Shown here: piece after piece, positions 6,781-64,000 of the stretch | How the letters are laid out: each line of letters opens with the position of its first letter | Position numbering within the stretch: the stretch's first letter is position 1 | Assembly (NCBI GenBank): GCA_007376145.1 | Contig: VMFP01000004.1 | Coordinates: 70,988-134,987, forward strand | Length of the DNA: 64,000 bases | Source: Parcubacteria group bacterium Gr01-1014_38 | GTDB lineage: Bacteria > Patescibacteriota > Andersenbacteria > UBA10190 > CAIZMI01 | Reading direction: 5' to 3' | Made by a program: the position numbers and the translations under genes | The notes under the pieces: model-generated | What the model was told of the DNA's origin: nothing | Seen by the model: the letters and a program-made list of their open reading frames with translations, nothing else | Databases searched by the model: none

Positions 6781-6782
6781 TT

Positions 6783-8051: not shown

Positions 8052-8062
8052 AGAGAACTTCT

Positions 8063-9518: not shown

Positions 9519-9527
9519 AAACCGAAA

Positions 9528-10352: not shown

Positions 10353-10388
10353 TGTTCCTCAATGAAATGACGAAGATGACGTAAGCGA

Positions 10389-14577: not shown

Positions 14578-14582
14578 ACACC

Positions 14583-17902: not shown

Positions 17903-18619
17903 TCATGGCTTTCGCGCGACGGCTGCGTAGTGAAGGGCGAAGAGCTTCCGGCGATCCGTGTGCCCATCAAACCACAGTGCGAGAGCGTTGGAAGCCCGGA
18001 GGAGACCAGACGTCAGAGGCCAGATCACGGGAACTCCGTACGCGAGCCCAACCAGGAACGTCGCGGGGATCAACTGCAGAAAACAGAATATTCCCCCGGA
18101 TGGCTCCAGAGAAAGTACTGCGAACCCCCCGTCTTCGAGAAGGCGACGAAGCCCATACGTAGTATACCGATAAAAATCGTTCGGCTCGTTGTGAAGATAT
18201 CCAAGATGCGGCACGGTGATAATCAGCTTTCCGCCGGGGCGAAGGACACGGCGGATTTCCGCAAGCGCCCTTCTCGGGTCAGGGATATGTTCGAGAACCT
18301 CCGCACACAGAACCGTGTCGAAACTCCCATCCGGAAGCGGCATGGCCTGGACGTCCCCAAGGTAGTCGAGCGCTGGGTGAGTGCGGGTGACGTCGAGACT
18401 GCGATACTCCTGCACATGAGGGAGAAGCACCGATCGGTAGGTGAGCGTTCCAGCACCGGCATCAAGTGCACGCCCGCGGGCATGGGCGGCGGCTGCGCGG
18501 CGCACATCCCGGAGAAGCGCCAGACCCGCGGCGCTTCGCGCCCAAAATGCCTCCGTCCCCGCAAGGTCCGTGGAGGACTGCGCCCACTGTCGCTTGATGC
18601 GCTCGTGTAACGAACTCAT
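17903..18619 (-). CDS. class I SAM-dependent methyltransferase (Methyltransf_11-like)
   Basis: RALDAGAGTLTYRS...VLCAEVLEHIPDP...LRPGGKLII. Confidence 0.7.
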   Translation of the reverse strand: MSSLHERIKRQWAQSSTDLAGTEAFWARSAAGLALLRDVRRAAAAHARGRALDAGAGTLTYRSVLLPHVQEYRSLDVTRTHPALDYLGDVQAMPLPDGSFDTVLCAEVLEHIPDPRRALAEIRRVLRPGGKLIITVPHLGYLHNEPNDFYRYTTYGLRRLLEDGGFAVLSLEPSGGIFCFLQLIPATFLVGLAYGVPVIWPLTSGLLRASNALALWFDGHTDRRKLFALHYAAVARKP

Positions 18620-25344: not shown

Positions 25345-25348
25345 AGAA

Positions 25349-26272: not shown

Positions 26273-26274
26273 GG

Positions 26275-27504: not shown

Positions 27505-27510
27505 GCGAGG

Positions 27511-28470: not shown

Positions 28471-28472
28471 GC

Positions 28473-37125: not shown

Positions 37126-37992
37126 CTAGCCCCGGCTGCGCACGATGAGATCGGCGATCAGACCCATGAGTCCAATTTGAATTCCGACGACGACAAGCAC
37201 GATGCTGGCATCGGAGATGTTTCGCTCGAGCGTGAGGGTGCGAGCCATGTTGGCGATGCCGAGTCCCAAAAACAGGAGGCTGGGGACCGCGAAGAATCTT
37301 AAGGGGCGAAAATACGTCACGATGCGAACGATGAGCGTCAAGAAGTTCGGAAACTCCTGGAACAGACCGCGTCGAAGGGTGATGGTGGATTTCCCGACGC
37401 GCGGCGCGTAGACGACGGGCACCCACCGAACGCCGAGTTTGTTTGTCAGCGCGGCGAGCGTCGCCGTCGTCGTGAACGAGAAGCCGTCGGGAAACAGATG
37501 GAAGAATCGCTCAACGAATTCTCGTCGCATCACGCGCATGCCGGAGTTGAGATCCGGAATGCGCCGACCGACGAGAAACGCCGCCAGTGCGGAAACGATC
37601 ACCTTTCCGGGACGCCGCAGCAGCGGAAACGCCGCGACGTTCCCAACGCGAACGCCGACGACCATCTCGACACCGTCGGTCAACGTCTCCAGGAGGCGTG
37701 GGAAGTCATCCACCGGATACGTACCGTCCGAGTCAATGATGCCAAGGAGGTCGCCGCGCGCAGCGCGGATACCGGTTTTCAGCGCCGCCCCATACCCGCG
37801 GTTCTCCGGGTGGCGGACGACCATCACCGCCGAATGCCGACGAAGAATTTCTGGAGTGTTGTCGGTAGAACCGTCGTCCACGACAAGAATCTCCGACGGC
37901 ATGGAAAGCCTCTCGCGCATACGGAGAAGCCCCGCCAGACTTTTCTCGAGTCCTTGGGCCTCGTTGTAGGTCGGCACGATAATGCTGAGCAC
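37126..37992 (-). CDS. GT2 polyprenol-phosphate glycosyltransferase (GtrB/CsbB-like) with C-terminal TM helices
   Basis: LSIIVPTYNEAQG...ILVVDDGSTDNT...IDSDGTYP, plus two C-terminal hydrophobic helices. Confidence 0.8.
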   Translation of the reverse strand: MLSIIVPTYNEAQGLEKSLAGLLRMRERLSMPSEILVVDDGSTDNTPEILRRHSAVMVVRHPENRGYGAALKTGIRAARGDLLGIIDSDGTYPVDDFPRLLETLTDGVEMVVGVRVGNVAAFPLLRRPGKVIVSALAAFLVGRRIPDLNSGMRVMRREFVERFFHLFPDGFSFTTTATLAALTNKLGVRWVPVVYAPRVGKSTITLRRGLFQEFPNFLTLIVRIVTYFRPLRFFAVPSLLFLGLGIANMARTLTLERNISDASIVLVVVGIQIGLMGLIADLIVRSRG

Positions 37993-40951
37993 GAACGCAG
38001 TCTATGCGAGGGGCCGCAGTTCGTCGAGACGTCTCTTGGAACCCGCTCGGCCTTCCAAGCAACTCTCCCGCGCGGTTGCGCTCGAAGATGATCGCCGGGA
38101 TGATACGAGAGTCGTGAGCATCCGAGGATGGAACGGAGTGGCCTGGTGGCGTGGGCGCGTGCGGATCCTGACGCGACGAGAATCCATCAAAGCGGCGGCG
38201 TGTTTTTCCCTCCTCGTCAGTCTCTTCTTCGGTGCCACCTGGCTCCAAGGCCGGCTTCTCCTCTTCTTCGACCTTCTGTTCATCACCGCGCCCTTTGAAG
38301 ACATCTTTGCGCGGTACCAACGGGCCGGCCAGCTCCCGATCTGGGTTCCCGAGATGCAGAGCGGGTACCCCCTTCTCGGAGCACCGCACATGAACTTCTT
38401 TTACCCCGTGCACCTGTTGCTTCGGCAGTTCCTTCCCGGCGTGGTCACTCTCAACCTCTCGCTCGCGTTTCACCTCTTCATCGCCGGGTACGGGATGTGG
38501 CTCTTCCTTCGCGCACACCGACTTTCGTGGGCAAGTGCGCTGACCGGTGGCATCCTCTACGCCCTCGGCGCGCATCTCACGGGGCGCTTCGGCCTCCTCA
38601 ACATTGTCTTGCCTGTCTCCTGGCTGCCGTTGCTCCTCTGGACATTCCAGCGTCTCTGGGACCGGCCGACGCTCCCGCGCGCGATCGCCTTGGCCGCCAT
38701 CGCCTCGCTCCACGTCCTCTCCGGCTCACCGCAGATGTCGGTGATCGCTGCGAGCGTGGTGGGCCTGTACGCCCTCGGTCTCCTTGCCACGTCGCGCCGA
38801 GAGCCGCGGCGTCACGCACGCCGCGGCGCCCTGCTCTTGGTGAGCGTGGCGGCAACCCTCGGACTCGTGGCGGTGCAGCTGGTCCCTGGGCTTTCAAACC
38901 TGCGATTCACCGATCGGAATGAACCGCTCTCGCGGCGCGAACTCCTCGAATTCGGGTACCCGCCGTGGCAGACGTTGACCTGGGCATTCCCAGACGCCTT
39001 TGGCCATGATCGGCAGTACTTCGGCGCGAAAAACGAAACGGAACTCGCGTTCTCGTTCGGCGCCGTCGGCTGGCTCCTCGTATTTGGCGGAACGTTGTTC
39101 ATCCGCCGCCTGGACAGGCCACTGCGCGTGTTCCTCGTGCTGCTCGCGATCGTCGGCGTGTCGCTCGCTCCCGGAGAACATTCGCCGGTGTACCGCTGGC
39201 TCGTCGAACATCGTCTCATCCAGCACTTCGCGCAACCGGCGCGCGTCCTGATCATGCTCCACTTCGCGGGGAGTGTGGCCGGCGCCGCGTTCGTCGCTGC
39301 GCTGCCGACACTCCGCTCACGCCACCGTGCGCTTCTCACCATTATTGCGGCCGCCGTCCTTTTCAGCACCCTCGCCGGCGCGGTCACGCTCCTTCCTTCG
39401 TCCATCGCGGAACGAACTACTGCAGCACTTCGTCACTCTCCCTGGCGGGTCGTCACGCCGCTCGCCGCGTTCCTCGGCGTGGCCCTGCTCCTGCTGCCCG
39501 GGTCTTGGCGGTCGTGGCGGACAGCCCTGCTCCTCGGCGTGAGCAGCGCAGAACTCCTCGGTGTCGCCTGGTGGTTCAACACGAGCGAAGACGCGGCGGT
39601 GGCACTCCAACGCCCCTGGGTTCTCCAATACCTCGGTGGTCCTCCACCACAACCCCGACTCTACGAACGCAGTAACCTCATCGTCACTCGCCCGGCAGAC
39701 TATACGCCCACCCTCTGGCACCGTCCCACGAACCTGCGCTCCGCACGTCAATCCTTCATTGCGCAGCAAGACGGACTGAAGGGAGTGACCGTTCAGTTCT
39801 CCTGGGACCGGCAGGTGGTCCACCGCGGCACGCTCCGGCTGACCCTGGAAGATGCCGAGGGCGTTCCGTTGGCGACTGCGGAGCGCGCGTATGCCGACGC
39901 CCAAGACGCTCAACCGCTCGAATTCCCTTTCGCGCGCCAGCCGCACTCCTTGGATCGTGCGTACCGCCTGGTGCTCGCGTGGCAAGACGCGACCGGTCCC
40001 GGACCAAGTCTCTACCTCTACGGAAACCTGTCAGGAGACTACGACCCGACGGGAGCGTTCGAGACCTGTTCTCCGCACTGTGCTCCCCTGGCCTCCCCCG
40101 AACACGTATACGGCTTCGACCTGAATTTTGTTCCGCGGTATGCCCCACCCACGGCGAACCGGCACCTCCAGCGGCAGCTTCTCCTCCCGCACATGGGAGC
40201 CGCCCTCGGCATCGAAACGACGCGGTGGGCGGGAGCCCTCGCGCTCGCGCATCAGAAACAGTACCTCCGCGAAATCGGTGAAGACCACGAAGGCTACCCA
40301 ACGCGCTTCAATCCGCTGCCCCAGATCAACCGTCCGCTCTTGGATCGCTACAGCATCGGGTACCTTCTCGTCTCCCACCCGTTCCACGAAGGTCCTCTTA
40401 CTTTGGAAGGCATCGAACGCATCAGCGAAACGCGGATTGATGATCGGCGGGTCGCCCTGTACCGGAACCGGCACGCCTTTCCGCGGTTTCACTTTGCGGC
40501 ACAGACCGTCGTCGCCGGCGATAACCCGGAAGCACTCCGTCGTCTTACCGGAAAGCACGCACTGCCCAAAGAGGCGGTGACCGTCCAAGGACCGGGTATT
40601 ACTGCCTGGCCGCCGGTGGAAACGTTCGATACGTCGGGGAGGGTGACGCTGCAGTCATACCGTCCAACCGAGGTGGTCTTCACCGTCGACACCGCCGCGC
40701 GTGCCTTCCTTGTTCAGAGAGACGCCTACCACCCGGGGTGGCACGTGTTCGTGGATACTGACGAGGCACCATTGATTCCTGTCGACGTTATCTTCCGTGG
40801 CGTGGTGGTTCCCCCCGGCATGCATACGATCCGGTTTGCCTTCGACACACGCTCGGTCTACGCCGGACTCGGCATCACCCTCGCCACGATCGCCTTCCTC
40901 GCGCTTTTGGGAATTCCGCGTCTCTGGCACCGATTGACGTTCTTCCGCTGA
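37982..40951 (+). CDS. YfhO-family polytopic membrane protein (start probably downstream of 37982)
   Basis: ...DLLFITAPFEDIFARYQRAGQLPIWVPEMQSGYPLLGAPH... is the YfhO first-loop pattern. It has a large C-terminal extracytoplasmic domain. The listed start overlaps the 5' end of the divergent GT2 gene by 11 nt, so the true start is likely later. Confidence 0.6.
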   Translation: MLSTNAVYARGRSSSRRLLEPARPSKQLSRAVALEDDRRDDTRVVSIRGWNGVAWWRGRVRILTRRESIKAAACFSLLVSLFFGATWLQGRLLLFFDLLFITAPFEDIFARYQRAGQLPIWVPEMQSGYPLLGAPHMNFFYPVHLLLRQFLPGVVTLNLSLAFHLFIAGYGMWLFLRAHRLSWASALTGGILYALGAHLTGRFGLLNIVLPVSWLPLLLWTFQRLWDRPTLPRAIALAAIASLHVLSGSPQMSVIAASVVGLYALGLLATSRREPRRHARRGALLLVSVAATLGLVAVQLVPGLSNLRFTDRNEPLSRRELLEFGYPPWQTLTWAFPDAFGHDRQYFGAKNETELAFSFGAVGWLLVFGGTLFIRRLDRPLRVFLVLLAIVGVSLAPGEHSPVYRWLVEHRLIQHFAQPARVLIMLHFAGSVAGAAFVAALPTLRSRHRALLTIIAAAVLFSTLAGAVTLLPSSIAERTTAALRHSPWRVVTPLAAFLGVALLLLPGSWRSWRTALLLGVSSAELLGVAWWFNTSEDAAVALQRPWVLQYLGGPPPQPRLYERSNLIVTRPADYTPTLWHRPTNLRSARQSFIAQQDGLKGVTVQFSWDRQVVHRGTLRLTLEDAEGVPLATAERAYADAQDAQPLEFPFARQPHSLDRAYRLVLAWQDATGPGPSLYLYGNLSGDYDPTGAFETCSPHCAPLASPEHVYGFDLNFVPRYAPPTANRHLQRQLLLPHMGAALGIETTRWAGALALAHQKQYLREIGEDHEGYPTRFNPLPQINRPLLDRYSIGYLLVSHPFHEGPLTLEGIERISETRIDDRRVALYRNRHAFPRFHFAAQTVVAGDNPEALRRLTGKHALPKEAVTVQGPGITAWPPVETFDTSGRVTLQSYRPTEVVFTVDTAARAFLVQRDAYHPGWHVFVDTDEAPLIPVDVIFRGVVVPPGMHTIRFAFDTRSVYAGLGITLATIAFLALLGIPRLWHRLTFFR

Positions 40952-50346: not shown

Positions 50347-51060
50347 ATGCGAAACGTGGTAACGGGGTCAACCGGTTCGGGTACGGACGACCGCACGCCG
50401 TCTGGGGAACCTTCGTTCCTGCTTCGAGGGATCTTTCACGTTCATACGAGCGCGTCGAAAGACTGCCGAATGTCGGCCGAAGCGGTCGTTTCCAAATGCA
50501 TTGATGAGGGCGTGGACGTCCTGGCAGTGACGGACCACCACGAGATTTCCGGCGCACAAGCCCTCCAACGGCGTGCGCCCTTCCAAGTGATTGTCGGAGA
50601 GGAAATCCGCGCGGCCGAAGGAGGAGAAATCATCGGTCTCTTTTTGAAGGAGAAAATCTCTCAAGGACAACACGCGCGAGACGTGGTGCGGGAAATCCGC
50701 GCCCAAGGCGGCCTCGTCTATCTCCCGCACCCTTTTGATCGAATCCGAACAAAACAGTGGCCTGACGCTCTCCGCGCAGCGCTTCTTGAGACTGCGGACA
50801 TTATGGAAGTCTTCAATGCGCGGAGCATGACGCGCACGTCGGAACGAAAAGCGCGGGAAGCCGCCGAGCGACTCGGGAAGGTCGCGTGCGTCGGCGCGGA
50901 TGCACACTTCCCCAGAGAAATCGGCCCAACGGCGGTGCTGCTTCCTCCCTTCTCCACGCCGGAGTCACTCCTCGTCAGTCTCCGAACGGCGCGCTTCCGG
51001 TGCCAGCGAAGTCCGCGCTGGGTGTTTCCGGCCACCAAACTTGTTGAGCTCCTGCGATGA
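50347..51060 (+). CDS. PHP-domain metal-dependent phosphoesterase
   Basis: ...RGIFHVHTSASKDC...LAVTDHHE...GLVYLPHPFD...GADAHFPREIG is a PHP His/Asp ligand pattern. The 5' part of the listed ORF (49900-50346) is antisense to the methyltransferase and was discarded. Confidence 0.6.
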   Translation: MRNVVTGSTGSGTDDRTPSGEPSFLLRGIFHVHTSASKDCRMSAEAVVSKCIDEGVDVLAVTDHHEISGAQALQRRAPFQVIVGEEIRAAEGGEIIGLFLKEKISQGQHARDVVREIRAQGGLVYLPHPFDRIRTKQWPDALRAALLETADIMEVFNARSMTRTSERKAREAAERLGKVACVGADAHFPREIGPTAVLLPPFSTPESLLVSLRTARFRCQRSPRWVFPATKLVELLR

Positions 51061-53636
51061 GAAACACCCTGCAGTGGTTCGGTGGAGCGGCGGTACTCCT
51101 TATCGCTGGCATTGTTCTGCACGCGCTCATCCTCGTTGATGATCTTCCGGATTTGACGCACGATGTTGCTGACGACCCGGAAAATTTCGTCGAGGTGTGG
51201 GGGACACGCACGCTTGGTCAGACGATTCGGCCTCCGCTGCCAAGCATGAGCGGCATTGCGCTGTCTCTCCACCGCCGACCGGGAGTGCATCTCTCCGGGT
51301 ACATTATCCTCCACATTCGGGAATCCCCAGACGCCACAAACGATCTCCGCATTGTCCGGCTCCCGGTCGTGTTTGTCCGAGGAGATCGCTTCACCGAGTT
51401 CCCCTTTCCTCCTCTGAACACGCGATCTCGAGAAGCCCTCTATCTCTTCATTGAATACCCCGACGGGACCAACGATCGTCCGCTGCTTCTCCGCGCGGAG
51501 CAGCGGGAGGTGGATCGGTCCAAGATCGAAAGAATCGTCGATTATGCGGGCGGAACACTCATCCGCGACCACCGGGCTGCCGCCGGCGATCTCGCCTTTC
51601 AACTCTTGAAGCGCGCACGTCGGCCCTTCGGTCTTCAAGTCATCGGCGCAGCACTCCTCGGAGGGATCAGCCTGCTGATCGGGGGCATGCTGTCCATTGC
51701 TGCACGTCGGCAGTGGGTAAAAACATCATGGATCGTCCCCGCGGTTCTTCTCGTCCTCGGCGCCGGACTGCCGCTCATCTTTTACCTCCCCCTCCTTCTG
51801 CAACCCTCCTTTCTCGGCGTGGGAGACTGGGATATGAACACCACGCTCCACGCGGCGGCGGAACGCGCACTCCTCCGCGAGCAGACGTTCCCGGGGTGGA
51901 ACCCGTATCTCTGCGGAGGGACGCCCCTCGCCGCGTTCCCGGAGGCACCGGTCTTCTCTCCCTTCTTCACCACTGTGCTGCTCGGAGGACCGGTAATCGG
52001 TTTTAAGATGAATGTTCTTCTGCACGGTGCGCTCGGGTTCTTGGGCATGCTCTTGTGGCTGCGAAAGGGGTGGAACCTGTCGTGGCTCGCGGCCTTCGTG
52101 GGTGCGGCCGTCGTCGTTTTTTCTTCTTTTATGGGACTGCATCTCGCCGCCGGCCACTCGCGGAAAGTCGCGGCCGCATGGATCCCATGGATTCTCTTGT
52201 TCTTCCAACGCGCCTGCGCGTCGGAGAACCCGCCGACGGGAGCTCGCGAGCAACACCGCGCGCATCGCTGGCGGTCCCTCCGCTTCGCCGCGCCCGCCGG
52301 AGGATTTCTCGCTCTCATGCTTCTGGACGGAAGCGTGTACCTGTCCATCTACTCCGCGACCTTCGTCGTCTTGGTGGGCATCTTGGCGAGTCTCAATGAG
52401 CGACGTGTACTTCCGATCGCCGCCAGTCTCGTCACCGTCCTCCTCGGTGGACTCCTCGCGGGAGTACACCTCGTGCCGACCGCATATTCCCAAGCCACGC
52501 TCCAGACGGTCTTAACCAACGAAACGGCGCCGGTGCCTCTCCAGGCGTTGTGGCACGTGTTCCTCGATCCCAATCAGCGTGACGACGCGCAGAAATTTGC
52601 CGGTCAGACGCAGCCCTGGCTTGAGTATGGCGCGTACGTCGGTGTCGTCCCCGCGCTCTTGAGCGTGCTCGGGATCTTCACCGCGTGGCGCGCGGTGCGC
52701 CCGTGGGCCGGCGCCAGCCTCTTCTTCCTTCTGGTCCTGGTTTCGTCATCGGTGCAGCGCGGGATCGAGGCAGTGCCAATACTCGGCGATCTCCGCAATC
52801 CGCAGCGCATGGCGGGAATGGTGACGATCGCCATCGGTCTCACCGCCGCACTGGGAACCGAGCGCGTGATGCGGTGGCTTCTCGGGACCGACCGCGCGGG
52901 TTCCCTCTCGTCCTCACCGCCGTCGCTCCATCGCGCCGTTGGCGCCGCTCTCGGCGTCCTCACCACCATCACCATTGGGCATCTCATCTTCGTGAACACG
53001 GAAACGTTGGCGGGAACCTTCGTCGTCCCGCCACCTCCGGCACAGGAGGAACCATTTCGCCAGGGGTGGGCGCGGAATCGCCTCGTGGGGATCGAAGACT
53101 CATTTGTCTTCACTATGGAAAATACGTTGCGAAACCGCGGTTCCATCAACCGCTGCTCGGTCGCGGGCATTCGACCAACGGGCGCGCTCCGCATGCCACC
53201 ACCACGTGACCCCGGGGGAGAAGTTGCCGCGGAGTTCCAGGACGCTCCGTATCGTGGAGAGGCATTTCTTCTCGAAGGGCAAGGCACCGCCGCAGTCGAA
53301 GAGCAAACCACGAATCGCGTCCGCGTCCGGTACCAGACGTCCTCGCCCGCTCTGCTCGCGCTCAACCAGAATTACCATCCAGGGTGGAGAACCTCGCGCC
53401 GATCCACGGAGCAGGATCGTCCCCGAGAAGAACCGGCCACCTTCGTTCAGGGTCTGGTGGCCACCGTGCTCCCACCGGGATCGGGAACGGTGACTTTCTC
53501 GTACACCACGCCAGCATTGAGAGCAGGCATGCTCACCACGGCGTTCGGGATGCTCGCTGCGCTGTGGCTGTGGCATCGCAGCACACTCCCGCGGACTCGA
53601 CGAGCAGAGGGTCGCGATCCTTCTGCACACCGGTGA
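51057..53636 (+). CDS. YfhO-like polytopic membrane protein
   Basis: ...GDWDMNTTLHAAAERALLREQTFPGWNPYLCGGTPLAAFPEAPVF... is a loop motif shared with the ORF at 40951. Its start overlaps the PHP gene stop by 4 nt. Confidence 0.55.
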   Translation: MRNTLQWFGGAAVLLIAGIVLHALILVDDLPDLTHDVADDPENFVEVWGTRTLGQTIRPPLPSMSGIALSLHRRPGVHLSGYIILHIRESPDATNDLRIVRLPVVFVRGDRFTEFPFPPLNTRSREALYLFIEYPDGTNDRPLLLRAEQREVDRSKIERIVDYAGGTLIRDHRAAAGDLAFQLLKRARRPFGLQVIGAALLGGISLLIGGMLSIAARRQWVKTSWIVPAVLLVLGAGLPLIFYLPLLLQPSFLGVGDWDMNTTLHAAAERALLREQTFPGWNPYLCGGTPLAAFPEAPVFSPFFTTVLLGGPVIGFKMNVLLHGALGFLGMLLWLRKGWNLSWLAAFVGAAVVVFSSFMGLHLAAGHSRKVAAAWIPWILLFFQRACASENPPTGAREQHRAHRWRSLRFAAPAGGFLALMLLDGSVYLSIYSATFVVLVGILASLNERRVLPIAASLVTVLLGGLLAGVHLVPTAYSQATLQTVLTNETAPVPLQALWHVFLDPNQRDDAQKFAGQTQPWLEYGAYVGVVPALLSVLGIFTAWRAVRPWAGASLFFLLVLVSSSVQRGIEAVPILGDLRNPQRMAGMVTIAIGLTAALGTERVMRWLLGTDRAGSLSSSPPSLHRAVGAALGVLTTITIGHLIFVNTETLAGTFVVPPPPAQEEPFRQGWARNRLVGIEDSFVFTMENTLRNRGSINRCSVAGIRPTGALRMPPPRDPGGEVAAEFQDAPYRGEAFLLEGQGTAAVEEQTTNRVRVRYQTSSPALLALNQNYHPGWRTSRRSTEQDRPREEPATFVQGLVATVLPPGSGTVTFSYTTPALRAGMLTTAFGMLAALWLWHRSTLPRTRRAEGRDPSAHR

Positions 53637-58120: not shown

Positions 58121-58127
58121 CTGTGAT

Positions 58128-58844
58128 ATGCACAGCGTCGTCATCATCCCCACATACAATGAGCGGGAAAACATTCTCTCGCTCCTCGACGCATTGGAAC
58201 GTCGGTGCGGACCCGAGGTCTCCTTCCTCGTCGTTGATGATTCGTCCCCCGACGGGACGGGAAACCTCGTGCACCAGCGTGCGGTGAACGATCCGAGAGT
58301 TCGACTGTTCTCACGACCGAAGAAGGAGGGCTTGGGTCCGGCCTACACCGCGGCGTTCGAACATGTCCTCACCGCATCGGGCGATCCGGTTCCAGAAAGC
58401 ATTGTGCAGATGGATGCCGATTTTTCCCATCATCCCGACGATGTCCCCCGCCTTCTCGCGACCCTCGAACACGCCGATCTGGTGGTCGGCTCGCGGTACT
58501 GTCCGAGCGGTTCCGTGGCCAATTGGAACTGGCGTCGGCGCTTCTTGAGTCGGGTGGCAAACGAGTATGCTCGCCTCCTCACGCGAGTTTCCGTTCGGGA
58601 TCTCACGGCAGGGTTCTGCGCGTGGCGGGCAGACGTGCTCCGGCGTGTCGCGCCAAGCACCATCCGCGCCGATGGGTACGGGTACCTTCTCGCCATGAAA
58701 GTACGGGCGGCGCGGCTCGGCACGCGCATTGCGGAAGTCCCCATCATCTTCCGTGAACGCCGAGGCGGCGTGTCCAAAATTAGCTCCCACGTCATCGGCG
58801 AAGCGGCGTTGCTGGTCCTGCGCTTGGCGATTCGACGGTGGTGA
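58128..58844 (+). CDS. GT2 polyprenol-phosphate sugar synthase (Dpm1/Ppm1-like)
   Basis: MHSVVIIPTYNERENI...FLVVDDSSPDGT...MDADFSHHP. Confidence 0.8.
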   Translation: MHSVVIIPTYNERENILSLLDALERRCGPEVSFLVVDDSSPDGTGNLVHQRAVNDPRVRLFSRPKKEGLGPAYTAAFEHVLTASGDPVPESIVQMDADFSHHPDDVPRLLATLEHADLVVGSRYCPSGSVANWNWRRRFLSRVANEYARLLTRVSVRDLTAGFCAWRADVLRRVAPSTIRADGYGYLLAMKVRAARLGTRIAEVPIIFRERRGGVSKISSHVIGEAALLVLRLAIRRW

Positions 58845-61255
58845 CGTTGGTCTCTCCGATGAACCGCGCGTGGGATCTCCTCGTCCTCGCACTCGTTGCG
58901 GTTGCACTGCTGACCCCCTACACCGTCTCATCGTTTCTCCTCGCGGGAGACATCCGCGATCTCTACCTCCCGATCGAGGATTTCTTTCGCGCCGAGATGG
59001 CCGAAGGACGCGTGCCAAGCTGGGACCCTGATACGGCCTTAGGATTTCCGGTTCTCGCCTCCGCGCAAACGGGATTCTGGTATCCTCCGCTCTTCCTGCT
59101 CCGCCCCTTCCTTCCTCCCGAATATCTGTACGCCGTGACCTACCTTCTCCACGGCCTGGTCCTGGCGCTGGGCATGTACTCCTATGCGCGTTCCCTCGGT
59201 CTCTCGCGCGCGGGGTCAATGCTCACCGCACTCGCATGTACCGGAAGCGGGTTTACGGTCGGACACTTCACGCACGCCAATATTGTTTTTGGAATCGCCT
59301 GGCTTCCCTGGGTGCTCCTCGTCTCTGACGCCCTGGCCGCCTCGCTTCGACCCCGGCTTCTTGTCCTCCTAAGCATCCTCCTCGCGCTCACCGCGCTCCC
59401 CGGTCATTTCCACATCGCCGCGATCATCGCTGCGCTCAGCGCATGCCGCTTTCTCTTTCAGCTCCGCGTACGGCAGCCGGGCGTCCCGGCTTCGCACACC
59501 TTCTGGACATTCGGAGCGCTCTTTCTCCCGGTTCTGGTCGGCATGCTGGCACTCACGGCAGCGCAGCTCTTCCCCACACTCGAACTCGTTCGCGAGTCGA
59601 CGCGCGGTCCCGGTGGAGGATTTGATCTTGCGCGCGCCAATCAGCACTCCTTTCCACCGTGGCAAGCCATCACGTTCTTCCTTCCTGCCTTCTTCGGCTT
59701 CCCCGACCTGTCCGAATACTGGGGAACGCGCCCCCAAATCGAAATGGCCGCCTGGATCGGAACACTCCCGTTCCTCTTCGCCTTGGTCGGCATCGGTTCG
59801 CTTCGTGCACGCACGCGGGAGCGAGTGTCCCCGAACTTCTGGGTGATCCTCGCGCTCGTCGGGTTCCTCTTCGCGCTCGGCCGGTGGTCGCCTCTCCGTC
59901 TCCTGGGCCTGGAACCAACGTTGGGGATCTTTTCCTCACCAGCGCGGTACCTGGTGCTCACCCAGTGGTCTCTGGCACTCCTCGCAGGCATCGGCTTTGA
60001 CCGCGTGCAACGCCAGCAACGCGCAGGGCGGCTGAGCGGACTGTTTGGGATTGGTGCAGCGCTCGCTGTGGGAGGTGGATTCGTCCTCCTCAAGACCGCA
60101 CCAGACACGCTTCGTCGCCTCGGTGCTCTTGCTATCGAGCAGGTCATTTTGGGAAAGCCGGGGCATGTGCTCTCCAAGACGCAGTACCTCGAAAAACTGG
60201 ATTATCTCCTGGAACGCGTGGGTACCTGGGGCTTCAATCTCAAGAACCCGCTCATTCTTCTGTCCACCGTTCTTCTGTTGTTCGGGGGGATCTGGCTCGT
60301 TCGCTCCGCGCGCCGACCGAGAAATGCAGCTCCGAGTCCGCGGAGCCTCCTGCTGCGTGCTTCTCTCGTGCTCGGGGCGACGGCCGTCGAGCTCCTGGCG
60401 ATGGCGTGGCAGGCGCATCCGCGCGTTGCCTGGGCCGACGTGCGGAAAGAATCTCCTGTGACCCAGGTAATTCGGGATCGTCCACGGGGGCGGCTCTACG
60501 TCGTCCACCCACAAGGCGACACCGGGCTGTACTTCGCGAATCCCACCACCATCAATCGAGAAGAACATGAGCGACTCCTCCGCGATCTCGCCGTCGCCAA
60601 CATCTTCACCCGGAGCGGGATTCCCGGCATCGAGTGGACAGCATCACTCGACTTGGCGCGGGCATCTCATATTCTCTCGCGCGCGCGCGATGACCAGGGA
60701 CGACCGGTGAACGAGAATCTCCTTGATCGCCTCGGCGTCCGCTATGTCGCGGGGAGTACGCGAACACCGGCGCTGCACCTTCCGCTACCCGCGCGCGGGA
60801 TTCTCAACTTCGAAAGCGCGGAGCAGGCCACGGTGCGCGTCTGGGAGCGCCCGACAGCTCGGCCGCGTGTCGAGCTTCTCACTGCCATGCCGCAGGAAAT
60901 TACCGAGCCGCTGCCGCCGACGGCGGGAACAGCGACCATCGTTTCGGAAAACCCGCACCACCTCGCCATCAGAGCCGAGAACCGAACCGGACATCCCGCC
61001 GCACTGGTGCTGCGTGATTCGTTCTATCCAGGCTGGCAGGCAACGCTTGATGGCGTATCGGTTCCGATCGCGCGCGCGGAGAGCGTTTTCCGCGGGGTAC
61101 TGATCCCGCCGGGAACGCACACGCTGATGTTTCGATACCAACCACGGGCGCTGTACGCCGGCATTGTGGTATCGAGTATCGTCCTCATGGCGCTCGGCGG
61201 AATGCTCCTCCGCCCAGCACTACTCCGTTCCACGAACGGAGCGGCGCACGCGTGA
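58838..61255 (+). CDS. YfhO-family polytopic membrane protein
   Basis: ...DIRDLYLPIEDFFRAEMAEGRVPSWDPDTALGFPVLASAQ... is the YfhO first-loop pattern. It is 805 aa with many TM helices and a C-terminal extracytoplasmic domain. Confidence 0.65.
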   Translation: MVTLVSPMNRAWDLLVLALVAVALLTPYTVSSFLLAGDIRDLYLPIEDFFRAEMAEGRVPSWDPDTALGFPVLASAQTGFWYPPLFLLRPFLPPEYLYAVTYLLHGLVLALGMYSYARSLGLSRAGSMLTALACTGSGFTVGHFTHANIVFGIAWLPWVLLVSDALAASLRPRLLVLLSILLALTALPGHFHIAAIIAALSACRFLFQLRVRQPGVPASHTFWTFGALFLPVLVGMLALTAAQLFPTLELVRESTRGPGGGFDLARANQHSFPPWQAITFFLPAFFGFPDLSEYWGTRPQIEMAAWIGTLPFLFALVGIGSLRARTRERVSPNFWVILALVGFLFALGRWSPLRLLGLEPTLGIFSSPARYLVLTQWSLALLAGIGFDRVQRQQRAGRLSGLFGIGAALAVGGGFVLLKTAPDTLRRLGALAIEQVILGKPGHVLSKTQYLEKLDYLLERVGTWGFNLKNPLILLSTVLLLFGGIWLVRSARRPRNAAPSPRSLLLRASLVLGATAVELLAMAWQAHPRVAWADVRKESPVTQVIRDRPRGRLYVVHPQGDTGLYFANPTTINREEHERLLRDLAVANIFTRSGIPGIEWTASLDLARASHILSRARDDQGRPVNENLLDRLGVRYVAGSTRTPALHLPLPARGILNFESAEQATVRVWERPTARPRVELLTAMPQEITEPLPPTAGTATIVSENPHHLAIRAENRTGHPAALVLRDSFYPGWQATLDGVSVPIARAESVFRGVLIPPGTHTLMFRYQPRALYAGIVVSSIVLMALGGMLLRPALLRSTNGAAHA

Positions 61256-61600
61256 AAAAGCCAGGCGGGGCGACGCCTGGCTAGACGAAGGTTGTGGGAC
61301 GTTTAGGCGAGGTAGACCACAATGCCGCAGGCTCCTGCCCGCCCACACCGGTCCCAATCCGACCATGAAACACGCCATGCCTGGCCCACTCGGCAGCGGC
61401 CTGTTCATTCCAACCGTGCATGCTTGAACCTCCCGCCGCGTCGTACGCGGACAATTCGAGAACGTTGAGAAAGAACGAAACGGAGATTCACCATACAGGA
61501 TCGGCGACTCCGCGTCAACACCGTTGCCAACAGATGGAGCGTGGGCTATGCTGCCATCATGGATCAGCGAGCCAAGCAGGAAGCTCAGACCCACGCCCAG

Positions 61601-61996
61601 ATGGCCGACGACGTGCTCCGGAAGTCCGAGATCGTCGAGAACAGCGCCCGCGGGATTATCGAGAAACTGGTCGAGGGAGAGTTCCATAGTGTCCTCCGCA
61701 TTACGTCGAAGGCAGGAACCGTCCGCGCGAACCACTATCATAAGCGGGACTCTCATCTCTGCTACCTCGTCCGCGGGAAAATCGAGTACGTGTATCGCGA
61801 TGCGCTCGACGAACGCGCACCGCTCCAGCGCATGATCATCGAACCCGGGCAGCTCTTCTACAGCCCACCGATGGTGGCGCACGCGATGGTGTTCCTCGAG
61901 GATTCGGAGTTCTACTGCTTCACGACGAGCCCCCGCCACACGCAGAAGGACTACGAGGACGACGTCGTCCGGGTCACGCTTGTCCCGTCTTCGTGA
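61601..61996 (+). CDS. small cupin, FdtA/QdtA (WxcM)-like NDP-4-keto-6-deoxyhexose 3,4-ketoisomerase
   Basis: From MADDVL: ...SARGIIEKL...GTVRANHYHKRDSHLCYLVRGKIEY...SPPMVAHAMVFLE. It has the HxH metal/active-site pair and the WH.M-like motif. The upstream in-frame ATGs at 61541 and 61559 are alternatives. Confidence 0.5.
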   Translation: MADDVLRKSEIVENSARGIIEKLVEGEFHSVLRITSKAGTVRANHYHKRDSHLCYLVRGKIEYVYRDALDERAPLQRMIIEPGQLFYSPPMVAHAMVFLEDSEFYCFTTSPRHTQKDYEDDVVRVTLVPSS

Positions 61997-63282
61997 GCAT
62001 GCAGGCACCCTCGATCCTTCACACATCGCTTCGGACCAAGAGCATCATCACGAAGACCACCGCCTGCCGACTGTGCGGAAGTCAGCGGCGTACCGATGTG
62101 TGGTCGTTCGGGGAAACACCGCTGGCGAACGCCTACCGCACGGTGGAAGAACTCGGGCAGCCCGAGTTCGTGGCGCCACTCACGGTCGCACGCTGTGAAG
62201 CATGCCAGCTCGTCCAGCTGCGAGAAACGGTCGATCCAACGGTTCTTTTCCGGGACTATCTCTACGTGTCGTCAACCTCACCGACGTTCGTCGCGCACTT
62301 CGACGCGTACGCCGCGCATCTCACGGAGCGTTTCCACCTCCGTGCGGGCACCTTCGTCATCGATATCGGGAGTAACGATGGGATTCTGTTGAAACCCCTC
62401 CGCGCCCGTGGCGTTCGCGCACTCGGGGTGGAGCCAGTCGCACACATCGCGGACAGAGCGAATGCGGAAGGCGCCGAAACTCTCCCGGCGTTCTTCTCCC
62501 GAAGTCTCGCCAGGGAGATTCGCTCGCGGTACGGACCGGCGACGGTGATCACCGCAAATAATGTCTTTGCACACATGCCGGATCTGGACGACGCTCTCCA
62601 AGGCGTGCAGGAACTCCTCGCAGAGGACGGCGTGTGTGCCTTCGAAGTGCAGTACCTTGGCGATCTGCTGGAGAAGAACCTGTTTGACATCGTGTACCAC
62701 GAACACCTCTGCTACTATCACGTCGCACCGCTCGTTCCCTTCTTTGCTCGGCACGGCTTTGAACTCTTCGATGTCCAACGCGTTCCCGTCCACGGTGGTT
62801 CTATCCGTGTTTTCGTCCAGCGAGCGAACGGGCCGCATCCCACGGAGACCCGGATCCAGGAACTGTTGGATGCGGAACGCGCTCAAGGCCTGCATACCCT
62901 CGAACCGTACCGGGCGTTCTGGCAACGGGTGCAAACGAATAAAGAGTCCTTGGTCCGTCTTCTCTCTCACCTCCGCGCCTCGGGGAAACGCCTTGCTGGC
63001 TACGGAGCACCGGCCAAAGCCACGACGCTACTGCAGACCTTCGGTATCGGTCCCGAAACGCTCGAGTACATCGTGGATGACGACACGAAGTTCAAGCAGG
63101 GCCGCTATATGCCGGGGTCGCACATTCCCATCGTGGCGCCAGAGCGTCTCTACCGCGACCGGCCGGACGCCTGCCTCATCCTCGCGTGGAATTTCGCCGA
63201 ACCGCTCATGCACACGCACCGACGCTTCACACAACAAGGCGGACGTTTTATTGTTCCCGTACCCGAACCCCGGATCGTGTGA
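61993..63282 (+). CDS. NDP-hexose C-methyltransferase (TylC3/NovU family), second paralog
   Basis: CRLCGS...CEACQ Zn ribbon, FVIDIGSNDGILL SAM motif, and C-terminus ACLILAWNFAEPLM. It is co-linear with the ORF at 6783-8051. Confidence 0.75.
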   Translation: MSMQAPSILHTSLRTKSIITKTTACRLCGSQRRTDVWSFGETPLANAYRTVEELGQPEFVAPLTVARCEACQLVQLRETVDPTVLFRDYLYVSSTSPTFVAHFDAYAAHLTERFHLRAGTFVIDIGSNDGILLKPLRARGVRALGVEPVAHIADRANAEGAETLPAFFSRSLAREIRSRYGPATVITANNVFAHMPDLDDALQGVQELLAEDGVCAFEVQYLGDLLEKNLFDIVYHEHLCYYHVAPLVPFFARHGFELFDVQRVPVHGGSIRVFVQRANGPHPTETRIQELLDAERAQGLHTLEPYRAFWQRVQTNKESLVRLLSHLRASGKRLAGYGAPAKATTLLQTFGIGPETLEYIVDDDTKFKQGRYMPGSHIPIVAPERLYRDRPDACLILAWNFAEPLMHTHRRFTQQGGRFIVPVPEPRIV

Positions 63283-63287
63283 GCGAT

Positions 63288-64000
63288 ATGCGACCCCCGC
63301 CCGTCATCCAAGAAGATCTGGCGGCGATTGCCGAGACCATCGGCAGCGCCGCGCAGGAACTCGCCGGGAAGACGGTGCTGATCAGCGGTGGCGCCGGGTT
63401 CCTCGGACGGTACTTCCTCGGCGTCTTCGCGCACCTGAACCGGCGAACGCTTGGCCAGCCGTGCCGCGTCATCTCCGCTGACAACTACATCACCGGAGAT
63501 CGGGACGGTGCGTTCGGGGTCAACGATGATCCGAACGTGCTCTCGCTCTGGGCGGATGTGACACTGCCGCTTCCCGTCCGCGAACCCGTTGACTACATCA
63601 TTCACGCCGCCGGCCTTGCTTCGCCCGTCTACTACCAACGGTACCCGCTCGAAACGATTGAGAGCGCCGTCCTAGGCGCCAAAAATCTTCTCGAGTTGGG
63701 CAGGCGAAACGCGCTCAAGAGTTTCCTGCTTTTCAGCTCGAGCGAAATCTACGGCGACCCCGACCCGCGCTCCGTCCCCACGCCGGAAACGTACTGTGGG
63801 AACGTCTCGAGCGTCGGTCCCCGCGCGTGCTACGACGAGTCGAAGCGGCTGGCGGAAACGCTTTCGATCGTCTACCACCAGCAATTCGGCGTGCCCGTGA
63901 AGATTGTCCGACCGTTCAACGTGTACGGTCCGGGAATGCGGCCGGACGACCGTCGCGTCATGCCGACGTTCGGGCTGCGCACGCTCCGCGGCGAGTCGCT
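63288..64000 (+). CDS. NAD-dependent SDR epimerase/dehydratase, UDP-glucuronate decarboxylase (UXS/ArnA-C)-like; 3' end outside window
   Basis: Manual translation: TVLISGGAGFLGRYF...LFSSSEIYGDPDPRSVPTPETYCGNVSSVGPRACYDESKRLAETL. The SSEIYGDP and CYDESKR motifs are characteristic of UXS-type decarboxylases. Confidence 0.65.
   Translation, partial: MRPPPVIQEDLAAIAETIGSAAQELAGKTVLISGGAGFLGRYFLGVFAHLNRRTLGQPCRVISADNYITGDRDGAFGVNDDPNVLSLWADVTLPLPVREPVDYIIHAAGLASPVYYQRYPLETIESAVLGAKNLLELGRRNALKSFLLFSSSEIYGDPDPRSVPTPETYCGNVSSVGPRACYDESKRLAETLSIVYHQQFGVPVKIVRPFNVYGPGMRPDDRRVMPTFGLRTLRGES

Follow-up and report, generated by a model that had tools for sequence, protein, structure and literature searches.

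A four-gene nucleotide-sugar cassette from a Parcubacteria genome, most likely for a methyl-branched pentose

The 64-kb window (the whole stretch of DNA analyzed here) ends within a cassette of four nucleotide-sugar genes, of which it carries the 5′ three-quarters; they encode a cupin, a C-methyltransferase (C-MT), a UXS-like SDR, and a Gfo/Idh/MocA oxidoreductase. The product is most likely a methyl-branched five-carbon sugar destined for the cell surface. On balance it is probable that the cassette turns UDP-glucuronic acid (UDP-GlcA) into a UDP-C-methyl-pentose, through formation of a 4-keto-pentose, C-methylation, enediol chemistry on the cupin, and reduction. A search of the literature yielded no published description of the cassette.

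Gene layout and neighborhood

Three genes, all on the plus strand, end the window, and the third of them, encoding the SDR, is cut by its boundary. A second assembly of the same DNA (L001) supplies the full 375-residue SDR together with the fourth gene, which lies beyond the stretch, overlaps the SDR gene, and encodes the Gfo/Idh/MocA protein, with an N-terminal Rossmann domain and a C-terminal domain (Pfam PF01408 and PF22725). The source genome is a Parcubacteria (CPR) MAG. The features of this part of the window are the following.

58125..58844, + strand: GT2 polyprenyl-phosphate glycosyltransferase (AglJ/ArnC/DPM-like), from Pfam Glycos_transf_2
58838..61255, + strand: YfhO-like (GT-C type) polytopic membrane protein of 805 residues, from the Pfam YfhO C-terminal region (44 bits)
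61524..61552, + strand: promoter-like element TTGCCA-17-TATGCT, a consensus match within the 303-nt gap after the YfhO-like gene
61559..61996, + strand: stand-alone cupin of 145 residues (ATG 61559, the start used in public assemblies), from Pfam Cupin_2 and Cupin_1
61733..61741, + strand: cupin HxH codons, H59-Y60-H61, read from the sequence; with H66 and H108 at the canonical cupin metal-ligand positions
61754-61756 and 61880-61882, + strand: codons of cupin H66 and H108, read from the sequence
61999..63282, + strand: NDP-sugar C-MT of the TylC3/MtmC/TcaB9/KijD1 family, 427 residues, from Pfam and PDB similarity
63288..64000, + strand: UXS/ArnA-type extended SDR, first 237 of 375 codons (full length from L001:3074-4201)
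63738-63746, + strand: SDR motif S151-S152-E153 (SSEIYGDP is residues 151-158)
63831-63848, + strand: SDR motif Y182-D-E-S-K186-R (YDESKR is residues 182-187)

An initial annotation of the window had described the three genes as co-directional and overlapping. The shared direction is real, but overlap is confined to the cupin and C-MT genes and depends on an alternative GTG start for the C-MT at 61993, which overlaps the cupin stop (GTGA). With the ATG at 61999, which gives the 427-residue form on record, the gap is 2 nt, and the C-MT and SDR genes are separated by 5 nt. The cupin also has an alternative start, a GTG at 61541 that lengthens it to 151 residues. The candidate promoter would place the transcript start near the cupin ATG; the search returned two promoter-like sites against 0.4 expected, a count that rests on consensus matching in a group whose promoters are poorly known. 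An antisense reading frame of 268 residues (61220-62026) is probably spurious, because GC3 in the cupin frame is 0.82.

The C-MT had been contrasted, as a high-GC gene, with a lower-GC paralog at 6783. The two do differ in GC, but it is the first cassette (5241-9518, GC 0.48-0.53) that departs from the mean of the stretch (0.607), and not the cassette at the end of the window, whose genes range from 0.61 to 0.64. The proposal that the window holds a second, independent sugar-tailoring operon, distinct from the first cassette, is supported.

Two genes upstream of the cassette may bear on the fate of its product. The GT2 protein matches the AglJ, dolichyl-P hexose transferase, and ArnC models of NCBIfam, all below their cut-offs, and similar proteins are encoded in 16 of the 80 cupin-anchored loci described below, directly upstream of the cupin in seven of nine listed members. 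It is a candidate for putting the finished sugar onto a lipid carrier. For the YfhO-like protein, a role as the extracytoplasmic transferase that acts on the lipid-linked sugar can be proposed from gene position only.

The four enzymes

Among solved structures the SDR is closest to human UXS1 (203-206 bits), followed by 8vr2 (110 bits) and RmlB (93 bits). It has S-S-E where dehydratases have T-D-E, and its YDExKR motif is the UXS/ArnA form. These findings confirm the earlier assignment to the UXS/ArnA type from the SSEIYGDP and YDESKR motifs, and an RmlB-type 4,6-dehydratase was rejected on the same grounds. Residues S151, S152, E153, Y182, D183, E184, K186, R187, N211, and R248 are invariant (47 of 47), N211 and R248 being the Asn and Arg expected in the active-site lid; in the alignment with hUXS1 the counterparts are T118, S119, E120, Y147, K151, N176, and R277. 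Scores below the NCBIfam equivalog cut-offs for UXS and ArnA (NF008872, 56 versus 294 bits; NF005998, 31 versus 777 bits) place the protein, as judged by sequence, in a subfamily distinct from those equivalogs. The SDR is presumed to be a UDP-GlcA 4-oxidase/decarboxylase that supplies a 4-keto-pentose.

The C-MT, entered in GenBank as a SAM-dependent methyltransferase, is a second TylC3-family enzyme, as had been proposed. It contains Methyltransf_13 (PF08421, 73 bits), Methyltransf_23 (PF13489, 64 bits), and Methyltransf_14 (PF08484, 194 bits), and thus has the architecture of the TylC3/TcaB9 enzymes, with a zinc-binding domain, a SAM Rossmann domain, and a C-terminal domain. Of the solved structures MtmC (4rv9, 345 bits) matches it best, ahead of KijD1 and TcaB9; two solved relatives were named 3-C-methyltransferases by their depositors. 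The Cys4 zinc site (C23, C26, C66, C69) and the residues Y87, H192, and Y233-H234-E235-H236 are shared by 95% or more of 59 module orthologs. The residues mutated in the TcaB9 entries 4e31 and 4e2y correspond in the alignment to Y87 and E235, and the remaining catalytic residues presumably have the roles described for TcaB9. Comparison with the C-MT at 6783 supports an old rather than a recent paralogy, since the two are 37% identical to each other, and module orthologs in other CPR genomes are 53-57% identical to this C-MT but only 35-41% identical to the copy at 6783. The C-MTs of modules with a cupin form a subclade of their own and are 40-57% identical to the one in the window, whereas in modules that lack the cupin the identity is mostly 28-37%, rising to 43-48% in four of the nine cupin-less loci that could be judged.

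The cupin, labeled “hypothetical protein” in GenBank (TSC72503), exceeds Pfam thresholds for Cupin_2 and Cupin_1 only. It had been read as an FdtA-like ketoisomerase from an FdtA/QdtA HxH signature. The HxH is indeed present, but with H66 and H108 it forms the canonical four-histidine metal pattern of cupins, HxH(x4)H...H, which is not specific to FdtA. R56, A57, N58, H59, Y60, H61, D64, H66, and H108 are kept in at least 95% of 55 cupin homologs from many phyla. The RG..E residues are kept as well; RG..E and R-x-x-H-x-H-K can be lined up by eye with FdtA. Membership in the FdtA family did not hold up. The protein does not reach the threshold of PF05523 (no match at E ≤ 0.01), that model matches six of 25 homologs weakly (best E 0.0094), and a profile search of the PDB with the cupin returned no FdtA or QdtA entry. 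Nor does it qualify as a true RmlC epimerase by profile, with 19.7 bits against a cut-off of 27 for PF00908 and weak matches in 13 of 25 homologs; a true RmlC-type protein is encoded elsewhere in the stretch (5241-5798, 218 bits). With PF14667, the profile for the CapF-type domain, it gains 20.3 bits where 28.7 are required, and all 25 homologs match that model at E ≤ 1 (best E 1.8e-6).

A Foldseek search of the PDB with an AF2 model of the cupin (pLDDT 89) placed CapF entries in the top five positions (TMq 0.69-0.71, E 1.5e-7 to 1.6e-6) and the ketoisomerase domain of FdtD at rank 46 (TM 0.52); PGI, PMI, and KdgF are also among the matches. The cupin belongs to an undescribed family of nucleotide-sugar cupins and probably uses a metal to form an enediol from a 4-keto sugar, either as an epimerase or as an isomerase. 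Metal binding of the Zn2+ type is predicted from its four conserved histidines.

A thymidylyltransferase and a 4,6-dehydratase had been expected downstream, but L001 shows the Gfo/Idh/MocA gene there, and the evidence favors a pentose route from UDP-GlcA in which the SDR would make the 4-keto sugar. In the Gfo protein E74-K75-P76 and W144-D145...H149 are kept in at least 90% of 50 orthologs. Its nearest named family is the UDP-GlcNAc 3-dehydrogenase (NCBIfam NF040723), matched over the full length at 130 bits, which does not reach the equivalog cut-off of 450. Gfo/Idh/MocA enzymes of sugar-nucleotide pathways, such as KijD10, WlbA/WbpB, and GnnA, act at C-3.

Conservation, proposed pathway, and alternatives

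Like the gene identities, family memberships, and catalytic residues, the conservation of the cassette is a matter of direct observation. A scan with 289 relatives gave 80 cupin-anchored loci, of which 41 keep cupin, C-MT, UXS-like SDR, and Gfo in this order; they are spread over CPR, Alpha-, Beta-, and Gammaproteobacteria, Verrucomicrobia, Elusimicrobia, and Omnitrophota. Another 19, including loci from Tectomicrobia and Woesearchaeota, have cupin, C-MT, and SDR, and in seven of these the contig stops within 2.5 kb of the cupin. Magnetospirillum sp. UT-4 is one carrier of the cassette. These four families are the only ones that recur across the loci. On one contig from Andersenbacteria all neighbors of the four genes are unrelated to them, and no dehydratase is present. 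Because a C-MT is present in 76 of the 80 loci, the function of the cupin appears tied to methyl branching; in L002 and L054 the C-MT is missing, while cupin, SDR, and Gfo are present. In eight loci, one of them from Mycobacterium sp. IS-3022, an RmlB-type dTDP-glucose 4,6-dehydratase adjoins the cupin and the UXS-like SDR is missing (the six RmlB-type genes checked score about 300 bits against TIGR01181). Within the cupin-anchored set the two enzymes replace each other and never occur together. Since RmlB also makes a 4-keto sugar, the swap argues that the SDR is the supplier of a 4-keto sugar and that cupin, C-MT, and Gfo act downstream of it. A scan anchored on the SDR, and so independent of the cupin, covered 39 metagenome loci with enough flanking sequence. 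There a C-MT adjoins the SDR subfamily in 34; a cupin is present in 25 and a Gfo in 19 (20 lack it), and the cupin is absent from nine of the 34 loci that have a C-MT. The constant core is therefore SDR plus C-MT only.

We infer the substrate, the order of steps, the position of the methyl group, and the fate of the sugar as follows. The SDR would oxidize UDP-glucuronic acid at C-4 and decarboxylate it to UDP-4-keto-pentose, as homology and the gene swap suggest. The C-MT, with SAM and via an enolate, would methylate a carbon beside the keto group, by homology most likely C-3. The cupin, probably with a divalent metal on its four histidines, would form a C3/C4 enediol(ate), leading to epimerization or a keto shift. 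Finally, the Gfo/Idh/MocA enzyme would use NAD(P)H to reduce the keto group that is left and give UDP-C-methyl-pentose. In the Parcubacteria genome the adjacent GT2 probably loads the sugar on polyprenyl phosphate, and its transfer on the outer side of the membrane would fall to the YfhO-like GT-C protein encoded next to it. We are aware of no bacterial glycan in which a C-methyl pentose of such origin has been described. Release of UDP-4-keto-pentose for tailoring has precedent among UXS-family enzymes in ArnA, EvdS6, and CalS9 (PMC10338323).

The simplest form of this scheme leaves the role of the cupin unexplained, because epimerization at C-3 ahead of methylation at C-3 would be redundant and a pentose has no C-5 stereocenter. 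It also needs a C-4 reductase, whereas the Gfo is nearest to C-3 dehydrogenases. Both difficulties would be eased if the cupin turned the 4-keto sugar into its 3-keto isomer, with methylation by the C-MT at C-4 or C-2 and reduction by the Gfo at C-3, to yield a 4-C- or 2-C-methyl sugar. Such a ketoisomerase would have a non-redundant role on a pentose. The link of the cupin to methyl branching and the separate C-MT subclade of cupin-bearing modules fit, the loci without a C-MT could combine an isomerase with a 3-reductase, and enediol isomerization is typical of metal cupins, with PGI, PMI, and KdgF among the fold matches. Against it, the cupin fails the Pfam FdtA model and its fold ranks an epimerase first, far ahead of FdtD, and the C-MT keeps exactly the catalytic residues of the solved members of its family, two of them named as 3-C-methyltransferases. 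We know of no TylC3-family enzyme that methylates beside a 3-keto group, and the bacterial C-methyl deoxyhexoses known to us carry the methyl group at C-3, also those of mycobacteria, which bear on the RmlB variant. This course of the reaction, which adds the fourth gene to the earlier proposal of a ketoisomerase followed by C-methylation, is a serious contender but is doubtful.

A broader reading, which we regard as unlikely as a whole, is that the cassette makes an undescribed sugar nucleotide, a methyl-branched pentose derived from UDP-GlcA, by means of a new family of stand-alone metal cupins whose chemistry is coupled to C-methylation, with the Gfo reducing C-3. The cupin might shift the 4-keto group to C-3 ahead of TylC3-type methylation at C-4 or C-2, or it might catalyze a ketol-type rearrangement of a 3-C-methyl-4-ulose. 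If true, sugars with branches elsewhere than at C-3 or C-5 would be made with SAM but without radical chemistry, and CPR together with many other phyla would decorate their envelopes in this way, via a lipid carrier and a YfhO-type transferase.

It is improbable that the cassette serves a second 6-deoxyhexose of the mycarose or evalose kind, with a 4,6-dehydratase encoded elsewhere and the SDR acting not as a decarboxylase but as a 4-ketoreductase or epimerase. GenBank does call the SDR “dTDP-D-glucose 4,6-dehydratase-like”, its highest NCBIfam score is for a dTDP-glucose 4,6-dehydratase model (103 bits, far below the cut-off), and the RmlB variant indicates that cupin, C-MT, and Gfo can work on 6-deoxyhexoses. 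The 64-kb window showed no gene for a UDP-glucose 6-dehydrogenase, which may be encoded in another part of the genome. The SDR, however, is clearly closest to UXS, the Asp on which 4,6-dehydration depends is absent from its invariant S-S-E, and its YDExKR is of UXS/ArnA form. Moreover, the Andersenbacteria locus has no dehydratase, UXS-like SDR and RmlB exclude each other, and a second reductase beside the Gfo would be superfluous.

Still less probable is a noviose-like logic, in which the cupin would take the part of NovW as 3-epimerase and the C-MT that of NovU, methylating C-5 and converting the 4-keto-pentose to a 6-deoxyhexos-4-ulose that the Gfo would reduce at C-4. With its 4-keto maker, cupin, C-MT, and reductase the cassette parallels NovT/W/U/S, both cupin and C-MT would be non-redundant, and CapF-type cupins epimerize C-3 of 4-keto sugars. 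Yet among the solved structures compared, those that match the C-MT best are all C-3 methyltransferases, and making a 6-deoxyhexose by decarboxylation and re-methylation would be wasteful and without precedent. That the genes are chance neighbors without a common pathway is scarcely credible, since their order and tight spacing recur in dozens of distant loci found by two independently anchored searches.

Comparison with known systems

The pathway favored here, from UDP-GlcA to a UDP-C-methyl-pentose, combines elements of several described systems. With TylC3, EryBIII, MtmC, TcaB9, and KijD1 the C-MT shares the three-domain fold and the catalytic Tyr/His/Tyr-x-Glu-His set. In TylC3-type pathways, however, the keto sugar comes from a 4,6-dehydratase, whereas the cassette has a presumed decarboxylase of UXS type and its substrate is probably a UDP-4-keto-pentose; it also lacks a 2,3-dehydratase, and its reductase is a Gfo/Idh/MocA protein rather than an SDR. 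The noviose genes NovT/NovW/NovU/NovS are organized on a similar principle, with a 4-keto maker, a cupin that epimerizes, a C-methyltransferase, and a ketoreductase, but they use an RmlC-type cupin, an SDR reductase, dTDP-hexose substrates, and methylation at C-5.

FdtA, QdtA, and Tyl1a are small cupins that act on NDP-4-keto sugars with a catalytic HxH. The cassette cupin is also small, contains an HxH, and would act on a 4-keto sugar. FdtA uses no metal. The cassette cupin differs in missing the Pfam FdtA model, in its poor fold match, and in having four histidines at metal positions. It is closer in fold to CapF of the UDP-L-FucNAc pathway, its best match (TMq 0.71, E 1.5e-7), which carries its HxH in the same region of the barrel. 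In S. aureus CapF the segment K285-G286-x-H288-x-H290 contains the zinc ligand H290, and the C-terminal cupin domain epimerizes the CapE product (PMC5393024). That domain is Zn-dependent and epimerizes a UDP-4-keto sugar ahead of reduction, while the metal of the cassette cupin is predicted. The CapF cupin is fused to an SDR reductase; that of the cassette stands alone, is about 15% identical, and scores below the PF14667 cut-off.

A branched-chain sugar of 4-keto-pentose origin has a parallel in everninomicin, where EvdS6 is involved and the branched sugar eurekanate is proposed to arise from a 4-keto-pentose that a UDP-GlcA decarboxylase produces (PMC10338323). That branch is a two-carbon unit added at C-4 by a TPP enzyme in an actinomycete antibiotic, and the acetyl-branched pentose-derived sugar has been called unique to everninomicin (PMC10338323). 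The branch made by the cassette would be a SAM-derived methyl group, and the cassette is found in many phyla, in surface-glycan loci.

The Arn pathway offers another parallel, since in both a UXS-family SDR would release UDP-4-keto-pentose for tailoring, and a GT2 polyprenyl-phosphate transferase and a GT-C membrane protein adjoin the cassette. The SDR itself is much nearer to UXS1 (206 bits) than to the ArnA-type PDB entry PbgP3 (3slg, 53 bits). The Arn membrane transferase is ArnT, whereas its counterpart in the window is YfhO-like. Tailoring in the Arn pathway consists of transamination and formylation; in the cassette it would consist of C-methylation and reduction.

Gene layout at the end of the window

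Three co-directional genes occupy the final 2.5 kb of the window. The initial annotation, which recognized here a small cupin, a C-methyltransferase and a UXS-like SDR, is essentially correct in this observation.

Features at the end of the window
61559-61996, + strand: cupin; 145 aa in the public assemblies (GTG at 61541 gives 151 aa)
61999-63282, + strand: C-methyltransferase (C-MT); 427 aa (GTG at 61993 gives a 4-nt overlap with the cupin stop)
63288 onward, + strand: SDR; ATG lies 5 nt past the C-MT stop, and the gene is cut by the window end after 237 codons

A GC3 of 0.71-0.82 speaks for coding in all three frames. In exact-protein look-ups the ATG forms of the C-MT and the cupin are the forms on record; no such record was found for the GTG-start forms (429 and 151 aa). 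The genes had been called overlapping, which holds for cupin and C-MT only with the GTG at 61993 and does not hold for C-MT and SDR. GenBank names the products "hypothetical protein", "SAM-dependent methyltransferase" and "dTDP-D-glucose 4,6-dehydratase-like protein", respectively. The gap of 303 nt between the upstream YfhO-like gene and the cupin contains one promoter-like match (window 61524-61559), which stops 7 nt short of ATG 61559. No Shine-Dalgarno sequence precedes this ATG, and the cupin mRNA might be leaderless. An antisense ORF of 268 aa (61220-62026, - strand), opposite the cupin gene and the intergenic region, is probably spurious, an artefact of high GC.

A second, 4.9-kb assembly of the same DNA (L001), from which the full length of the SDR was taken, reveals a fourth gene. 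The SDR stop overlaps the start of a gene for a Gfo/Idh/MocA oxidoreductase (Gfo), which is partial in L001; full-length orthologs have about 320 aa.

Recurrence of the module

A search limited to one genome per species gave 289 cupin relatives, and the best 80 loci were fetched and their architectures assigned by tblastn with the proteins of the window.

Architectures among the best 80 cupin-anchored loci
41/80: cupin, C-MT, UXS-like SDR and Gfo
19/80: cupin, C-MT and UXS-like SDR (in seven, the contig stops within 2.5 kb of the cupin; in two others the Gfo is more divergent)
8/80: RmlB-type dTDP-glucose 4,6-dehydratase adjoining the cupin, no UXS-like SDR (TIGR01181 scores about 300 bits in the six that were checked)
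3/80: cupin, C-MT and Gfo, no UXS-like SDR (two with rml-type genes nearby on the opposite strand)
2/80: cupin, SDR and Gfo, no C-MT (L002 and L054)

The carriers include CPR/Patescibacteria, Alpha-, Beta- and Gammaproteobacteria (among them Magnetospirillum sp. UT-4), Verrucomicrobia, Elusimicrobia, Omnitrophota, Tectomicrobia, a Woesearchaeota MAG and Mycobacterium sp. IS-3022. When the ORFs of the 80 loci are clustered, wide recurrence is limited to the four module families. The next family, a GT2 polyprenyl-phosphate glycosyltransferase, occurs in 16 of the 80 loci and lies directly upstream of the cupin in seven of its nine listed members. On one Andersenbacteria contig the four cassette genes stand alone, surrounded by unrelated genes.

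Several variants deserve mention. The C-MT is lacking in a close CPR relative (L002:10001-12259; SDR 80% identical) and in an Elusimicrobia MAG (L054:10001-12125); these loci show that the cupin can act without methylation, and they would give an unbranched pentose epimer. In Mycobacterium sp. IS-3022 (L013:6391-15494) the RmlB-type variant comprises dehydratase, cupin, C-MT and Gfo. Two EryCIII/GT1-type glycosyltransferases and an O-methyltransferase lie on its flanks, an arrangement like that of mycobacterial glycolipid loci, and the variant is a candidate pathway for making a C-methyl 6-deoxyhexose. A related CPR contig (L082:5834-9775) has a second C-MT, two more SDRs and a GT2 immediately upstream of the four-gene cassette, and paired methyl-branching pathways may be common in such organisms. 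AsnB-type glutamine amidotransferases recur near the cassette: in the window (18616-20517), in L062 (14317-16170) and in seven other loci, with nine members across eight of the 80 loci. One conceivable link to the sugar would be the amidation of a uronic acid.

Because loci found through the cupin cannot show how frequent the cupin is, metagenome contigs were searched separately with aligned SDRs of the module. This gave over 590 matching stretches, and 39 of the best 80 loci have sufficient flank on both sides to be judged. The C-MT adjoins the SDR in 34 of these 39 loci; the cupin is present in 25 and the Gfo gene in 19. It follows from these counts that the UXS-like SDR and the C-MT are the constant core, to which cupin and Gfo are frequent additions. 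The C-MTs of modules with a cupin are 40-57% identical to the enzyme of the window, and most of those without one are more divergent (28-37%), although in four of nine judgeable cupin-less loci the identity is 43-48%. Such identities hint at two C-MT subclades that may have different partners or regiochemistry. Modules of SDR and C-MT without a cupin include L086, L088, L112 and L163.

A putative route to methyl-branched pentoses

The SDR is UXS/ArnA-like, because it scores 206 bits with human UXS1 and carries S151-S152-E153, Y182-D-E-S-K186-R, N211 and R248, none of which varies among 47 orthologs. The next entry scores 110 bits and RmlB only 93, and S-S-E stands at the position of the T-D-E of the dehydratases. 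A generic RmlB-type 4,6-dehydratase was rejected, and the UXS/ArnA assignment of the initial annotation is upheld. The subfamily is nevertheless distinct, in that its scores fall under NCBI's equivalog cut-offs.

The C-MT has a complete TylC3-type architecture (Pfam Methyltransf_13, _23 and _14), and among solved proteins it matches MtmC best (345 bits), ahead of KijD1 (298 bits) and TcaB9 (294 bits). Of 59 orthologs, at least 95% keep a Cys4 zinc site and the residues Y87, H192 and Y233-H-E235-H236; in alignment, Y87 and E235 coincide with positions altered in 4e31 and 4e2y, mutant entries of TcaB9. In its active site the enzyme agrees with the solved members of the family, and the depositors of two of these named them 3-C-methyltransferases. 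By this homology the enzyme is expected to need an NDP-4-keto sugar as substrate.

Substitution of an RmlB-type 4,6-dehydratase for the UXS-like SDR, in cassettes that are otherwise similar, is the most informative observation. What the two types of enzyme have in common is an NDP-4-keto sugar as product, and the swap thus points to the SDR as the generator of the 4-keto group. The SDR would convert UDP-GlcA to UDP-4-keto-pentose, a reaction carried out by ArnA, CalS9 and EvdS6 (PMC10338323). Cupin, C-MT and Gfo would then act downstream on the keto sugar. We consider it somewhat probable that the pathway runs in this way, from UDP-GlcA through a UDP-4-keto-pentose to a C-methylated product. 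The Gfo enzyme, the only dedicated reductase of the cassette, would perform the final reduction; in modules that lack it, the UXS-type SDR itself could reduce the product by means of retained NADH.

The best solved relative of the Gfo orthologs is 3c1a, a structural-genomics "putative oxidoreductase", which shares 41-47% identity with the module proteins along its entire length (57 loci, including L044, L068 and L069). It is the sole solved member of the group. The best named family is the archaeal UDP-GlcNAc 3-dehydrogenase, with 130 bits, under its cut-off.

Sequence alone is insufficient to place the cupin, for which no Pfam models but the generic Cupin_2 and Cupin_1 pass the threshold. Among 25 homologs, weaker matches are to PF14667 (25/25), RmlC (13/25) and FdtA (6/25). 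Conserved residues are R31-G32..E35, R56-A-N-H59-Y-H61, D64, H66, H108 and Y132-E-x-D..R138; H59, H61, H66 and H108 occupy the four classical cupin metal-ligand positions, and metal binding is predicted. PDB searches with the single sequence and with a profile gave only marginal matches, to generic metal cupins and an archaeal RmlC-like protein, and none to FdtA, QdtA or CapF. In a structure search with a model of the cupin, CapF entries came first; metal-dependent sugar isomerases and KdgF came after these, and the ketoisomerase domain of FdtD ranked 46th. Given this rank and the few weak FdtA matches, "FdtA-like" is not supported as a family label. A canonical RmlC was rejected as well; a true RmlC (218 bits) is encoded at 5241-5798.

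Most likely the cupin forms a metal-stabilized C3/C4 enediolate, with epimerization or a keto shift as the outcome. A keto shift, as in the ketoisomerase originally proposed, is attractive in that a C-3 epimerase would be redundant ahead of C-3 methylation and a pentose has no C-5 stereocentre; moreover, the cupin is nearly always accompanied by the C-MT (76/80 loci), and the Gfo enzyme resembles C-3 dehydrogenases. Counted on its own, this version is less likely than the general scheme but a serious alternative. Both the homology of the C-MT and the match to CapF favor epimerization with C-3 methylation, as does the fact that the bacterial C-methyl deoxyhexoses known to us are 3-C-methyl sugars. 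The cupin domain of CapF epimerizes a UDP-4-keto sugar in a Zn-dependent manner, and its HxH region contains the Zn ligand His290 (PMC5393024).

Glycan context and known systems

The entire 64-kb window is a surface-glycan locus. Its GT-C membrane proteins comprise three of PMT_2 type and three YfhO-like; these six large proteins lie at 12358-16112, 34490-36988, 37982-40951, 51057-53636 and 58838-61255, several beside GT2 polyprenyl-phosphate transferases. This lipid-carrier glycosylation set is unusually dense for a genome-reduced CPR organism. Also present are several GT2/GT4 enzymes, MurJ-/Wzx-like flippases, two DegT aminotransferases, a formyltransferase adjoining FolD and SHMT, an AsnB-type amidotransferase and several methyltransferases. 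What looks like a pathway to an N-formyl amino sugar, provided with one-carbon units of its own, lies at 24160-29795, where FolD and serine hydroxymethyltransferase stand beside a DegT aminotransferase, a GT4 and a formyltransferase of sugar type. No UDP-glucose 6-dehydrogenase was recognized within the window.

Neighboring features
4281-12173: first cassette; NDP-hexose 2,3-dehydratase, KijD10-like Gfo, C-MT, the true RmlC, methyltransferase, GT2 and NovN-like carbamoyltransferase
58125-58844: GT2, polyprenyl-phosphate type, directly upstream of the present cassette
58838-61255: YfhO-like protein, directly upstream of the present cassette

The GT2 and YfhO-like genes directly upstream suggest that the product of the cassette takes a lipid-carrier route; the pair bears a formal likeness to ArnC/ArnT.

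The first cassette has the gene complement classically associated with a 2,6-dideoxy-3-C-methyl sugar and suggests such a sugar, possibly carbamoylated. Its C-MT is only 37% identical to that of the present cassette, and a recent duplication was rejected on this ground. The two enzymes differ in origin, as earlier proposed. By composition, however, it is the first cassette that is foreign and not the high-GC C-MT: its genes have a GC content of 0.48-0.55, with 0.48-0.53 at 5241-9518, against a window mean of 0.607 and 0.61-0.64 for the present cassette. It is possible that the first cassette was acquired horizontally.

To our knowledge, nearly all methyl-branched sugars described are 6-deoxyhexoses, from antibiotics and a few O-antigens, and a 4,6-dehydratase always supplies the product from which they are made. 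In the present cassette a TylC3-type C-MT is coupled with a UXS-type decarboxylase subfamily dedicated to it, and hundreds of genomes and metagenome contigs show this pairing, across very different phyla that include the genome-reduced CPR bacteria. No description of it was found in the searchable literature, in which subscription journals are few, and this is weak evidence of absence; nor was one found there for the stand-alone metal-type cupin family or a methyl-branched pentose of this kind. The cassette is not described in the literature found on the gene combination, C-methyl pentoses, the mycobacterial variant or the TcaB9 mechanism. If the proposal is true, UDP-linked C-methyl pentoses would be a widespread, unrecognized class in microbial surface glycans, a new cupin enzyme family would emerge from proteins now annotated "hypothetical", and 3c1a would gain a function. 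The cassette is small and self-contained and its enzymes are soluble, and the prediction is therefore directly testable in vitro. A pentose-derived sugar with an acetyl branch has been called unique to everninomicin in the study of EvdS6 (PMC10338323). All enzymes of the cassette belong to known superfamilies, and the proposed chemistry has precedents step by step.
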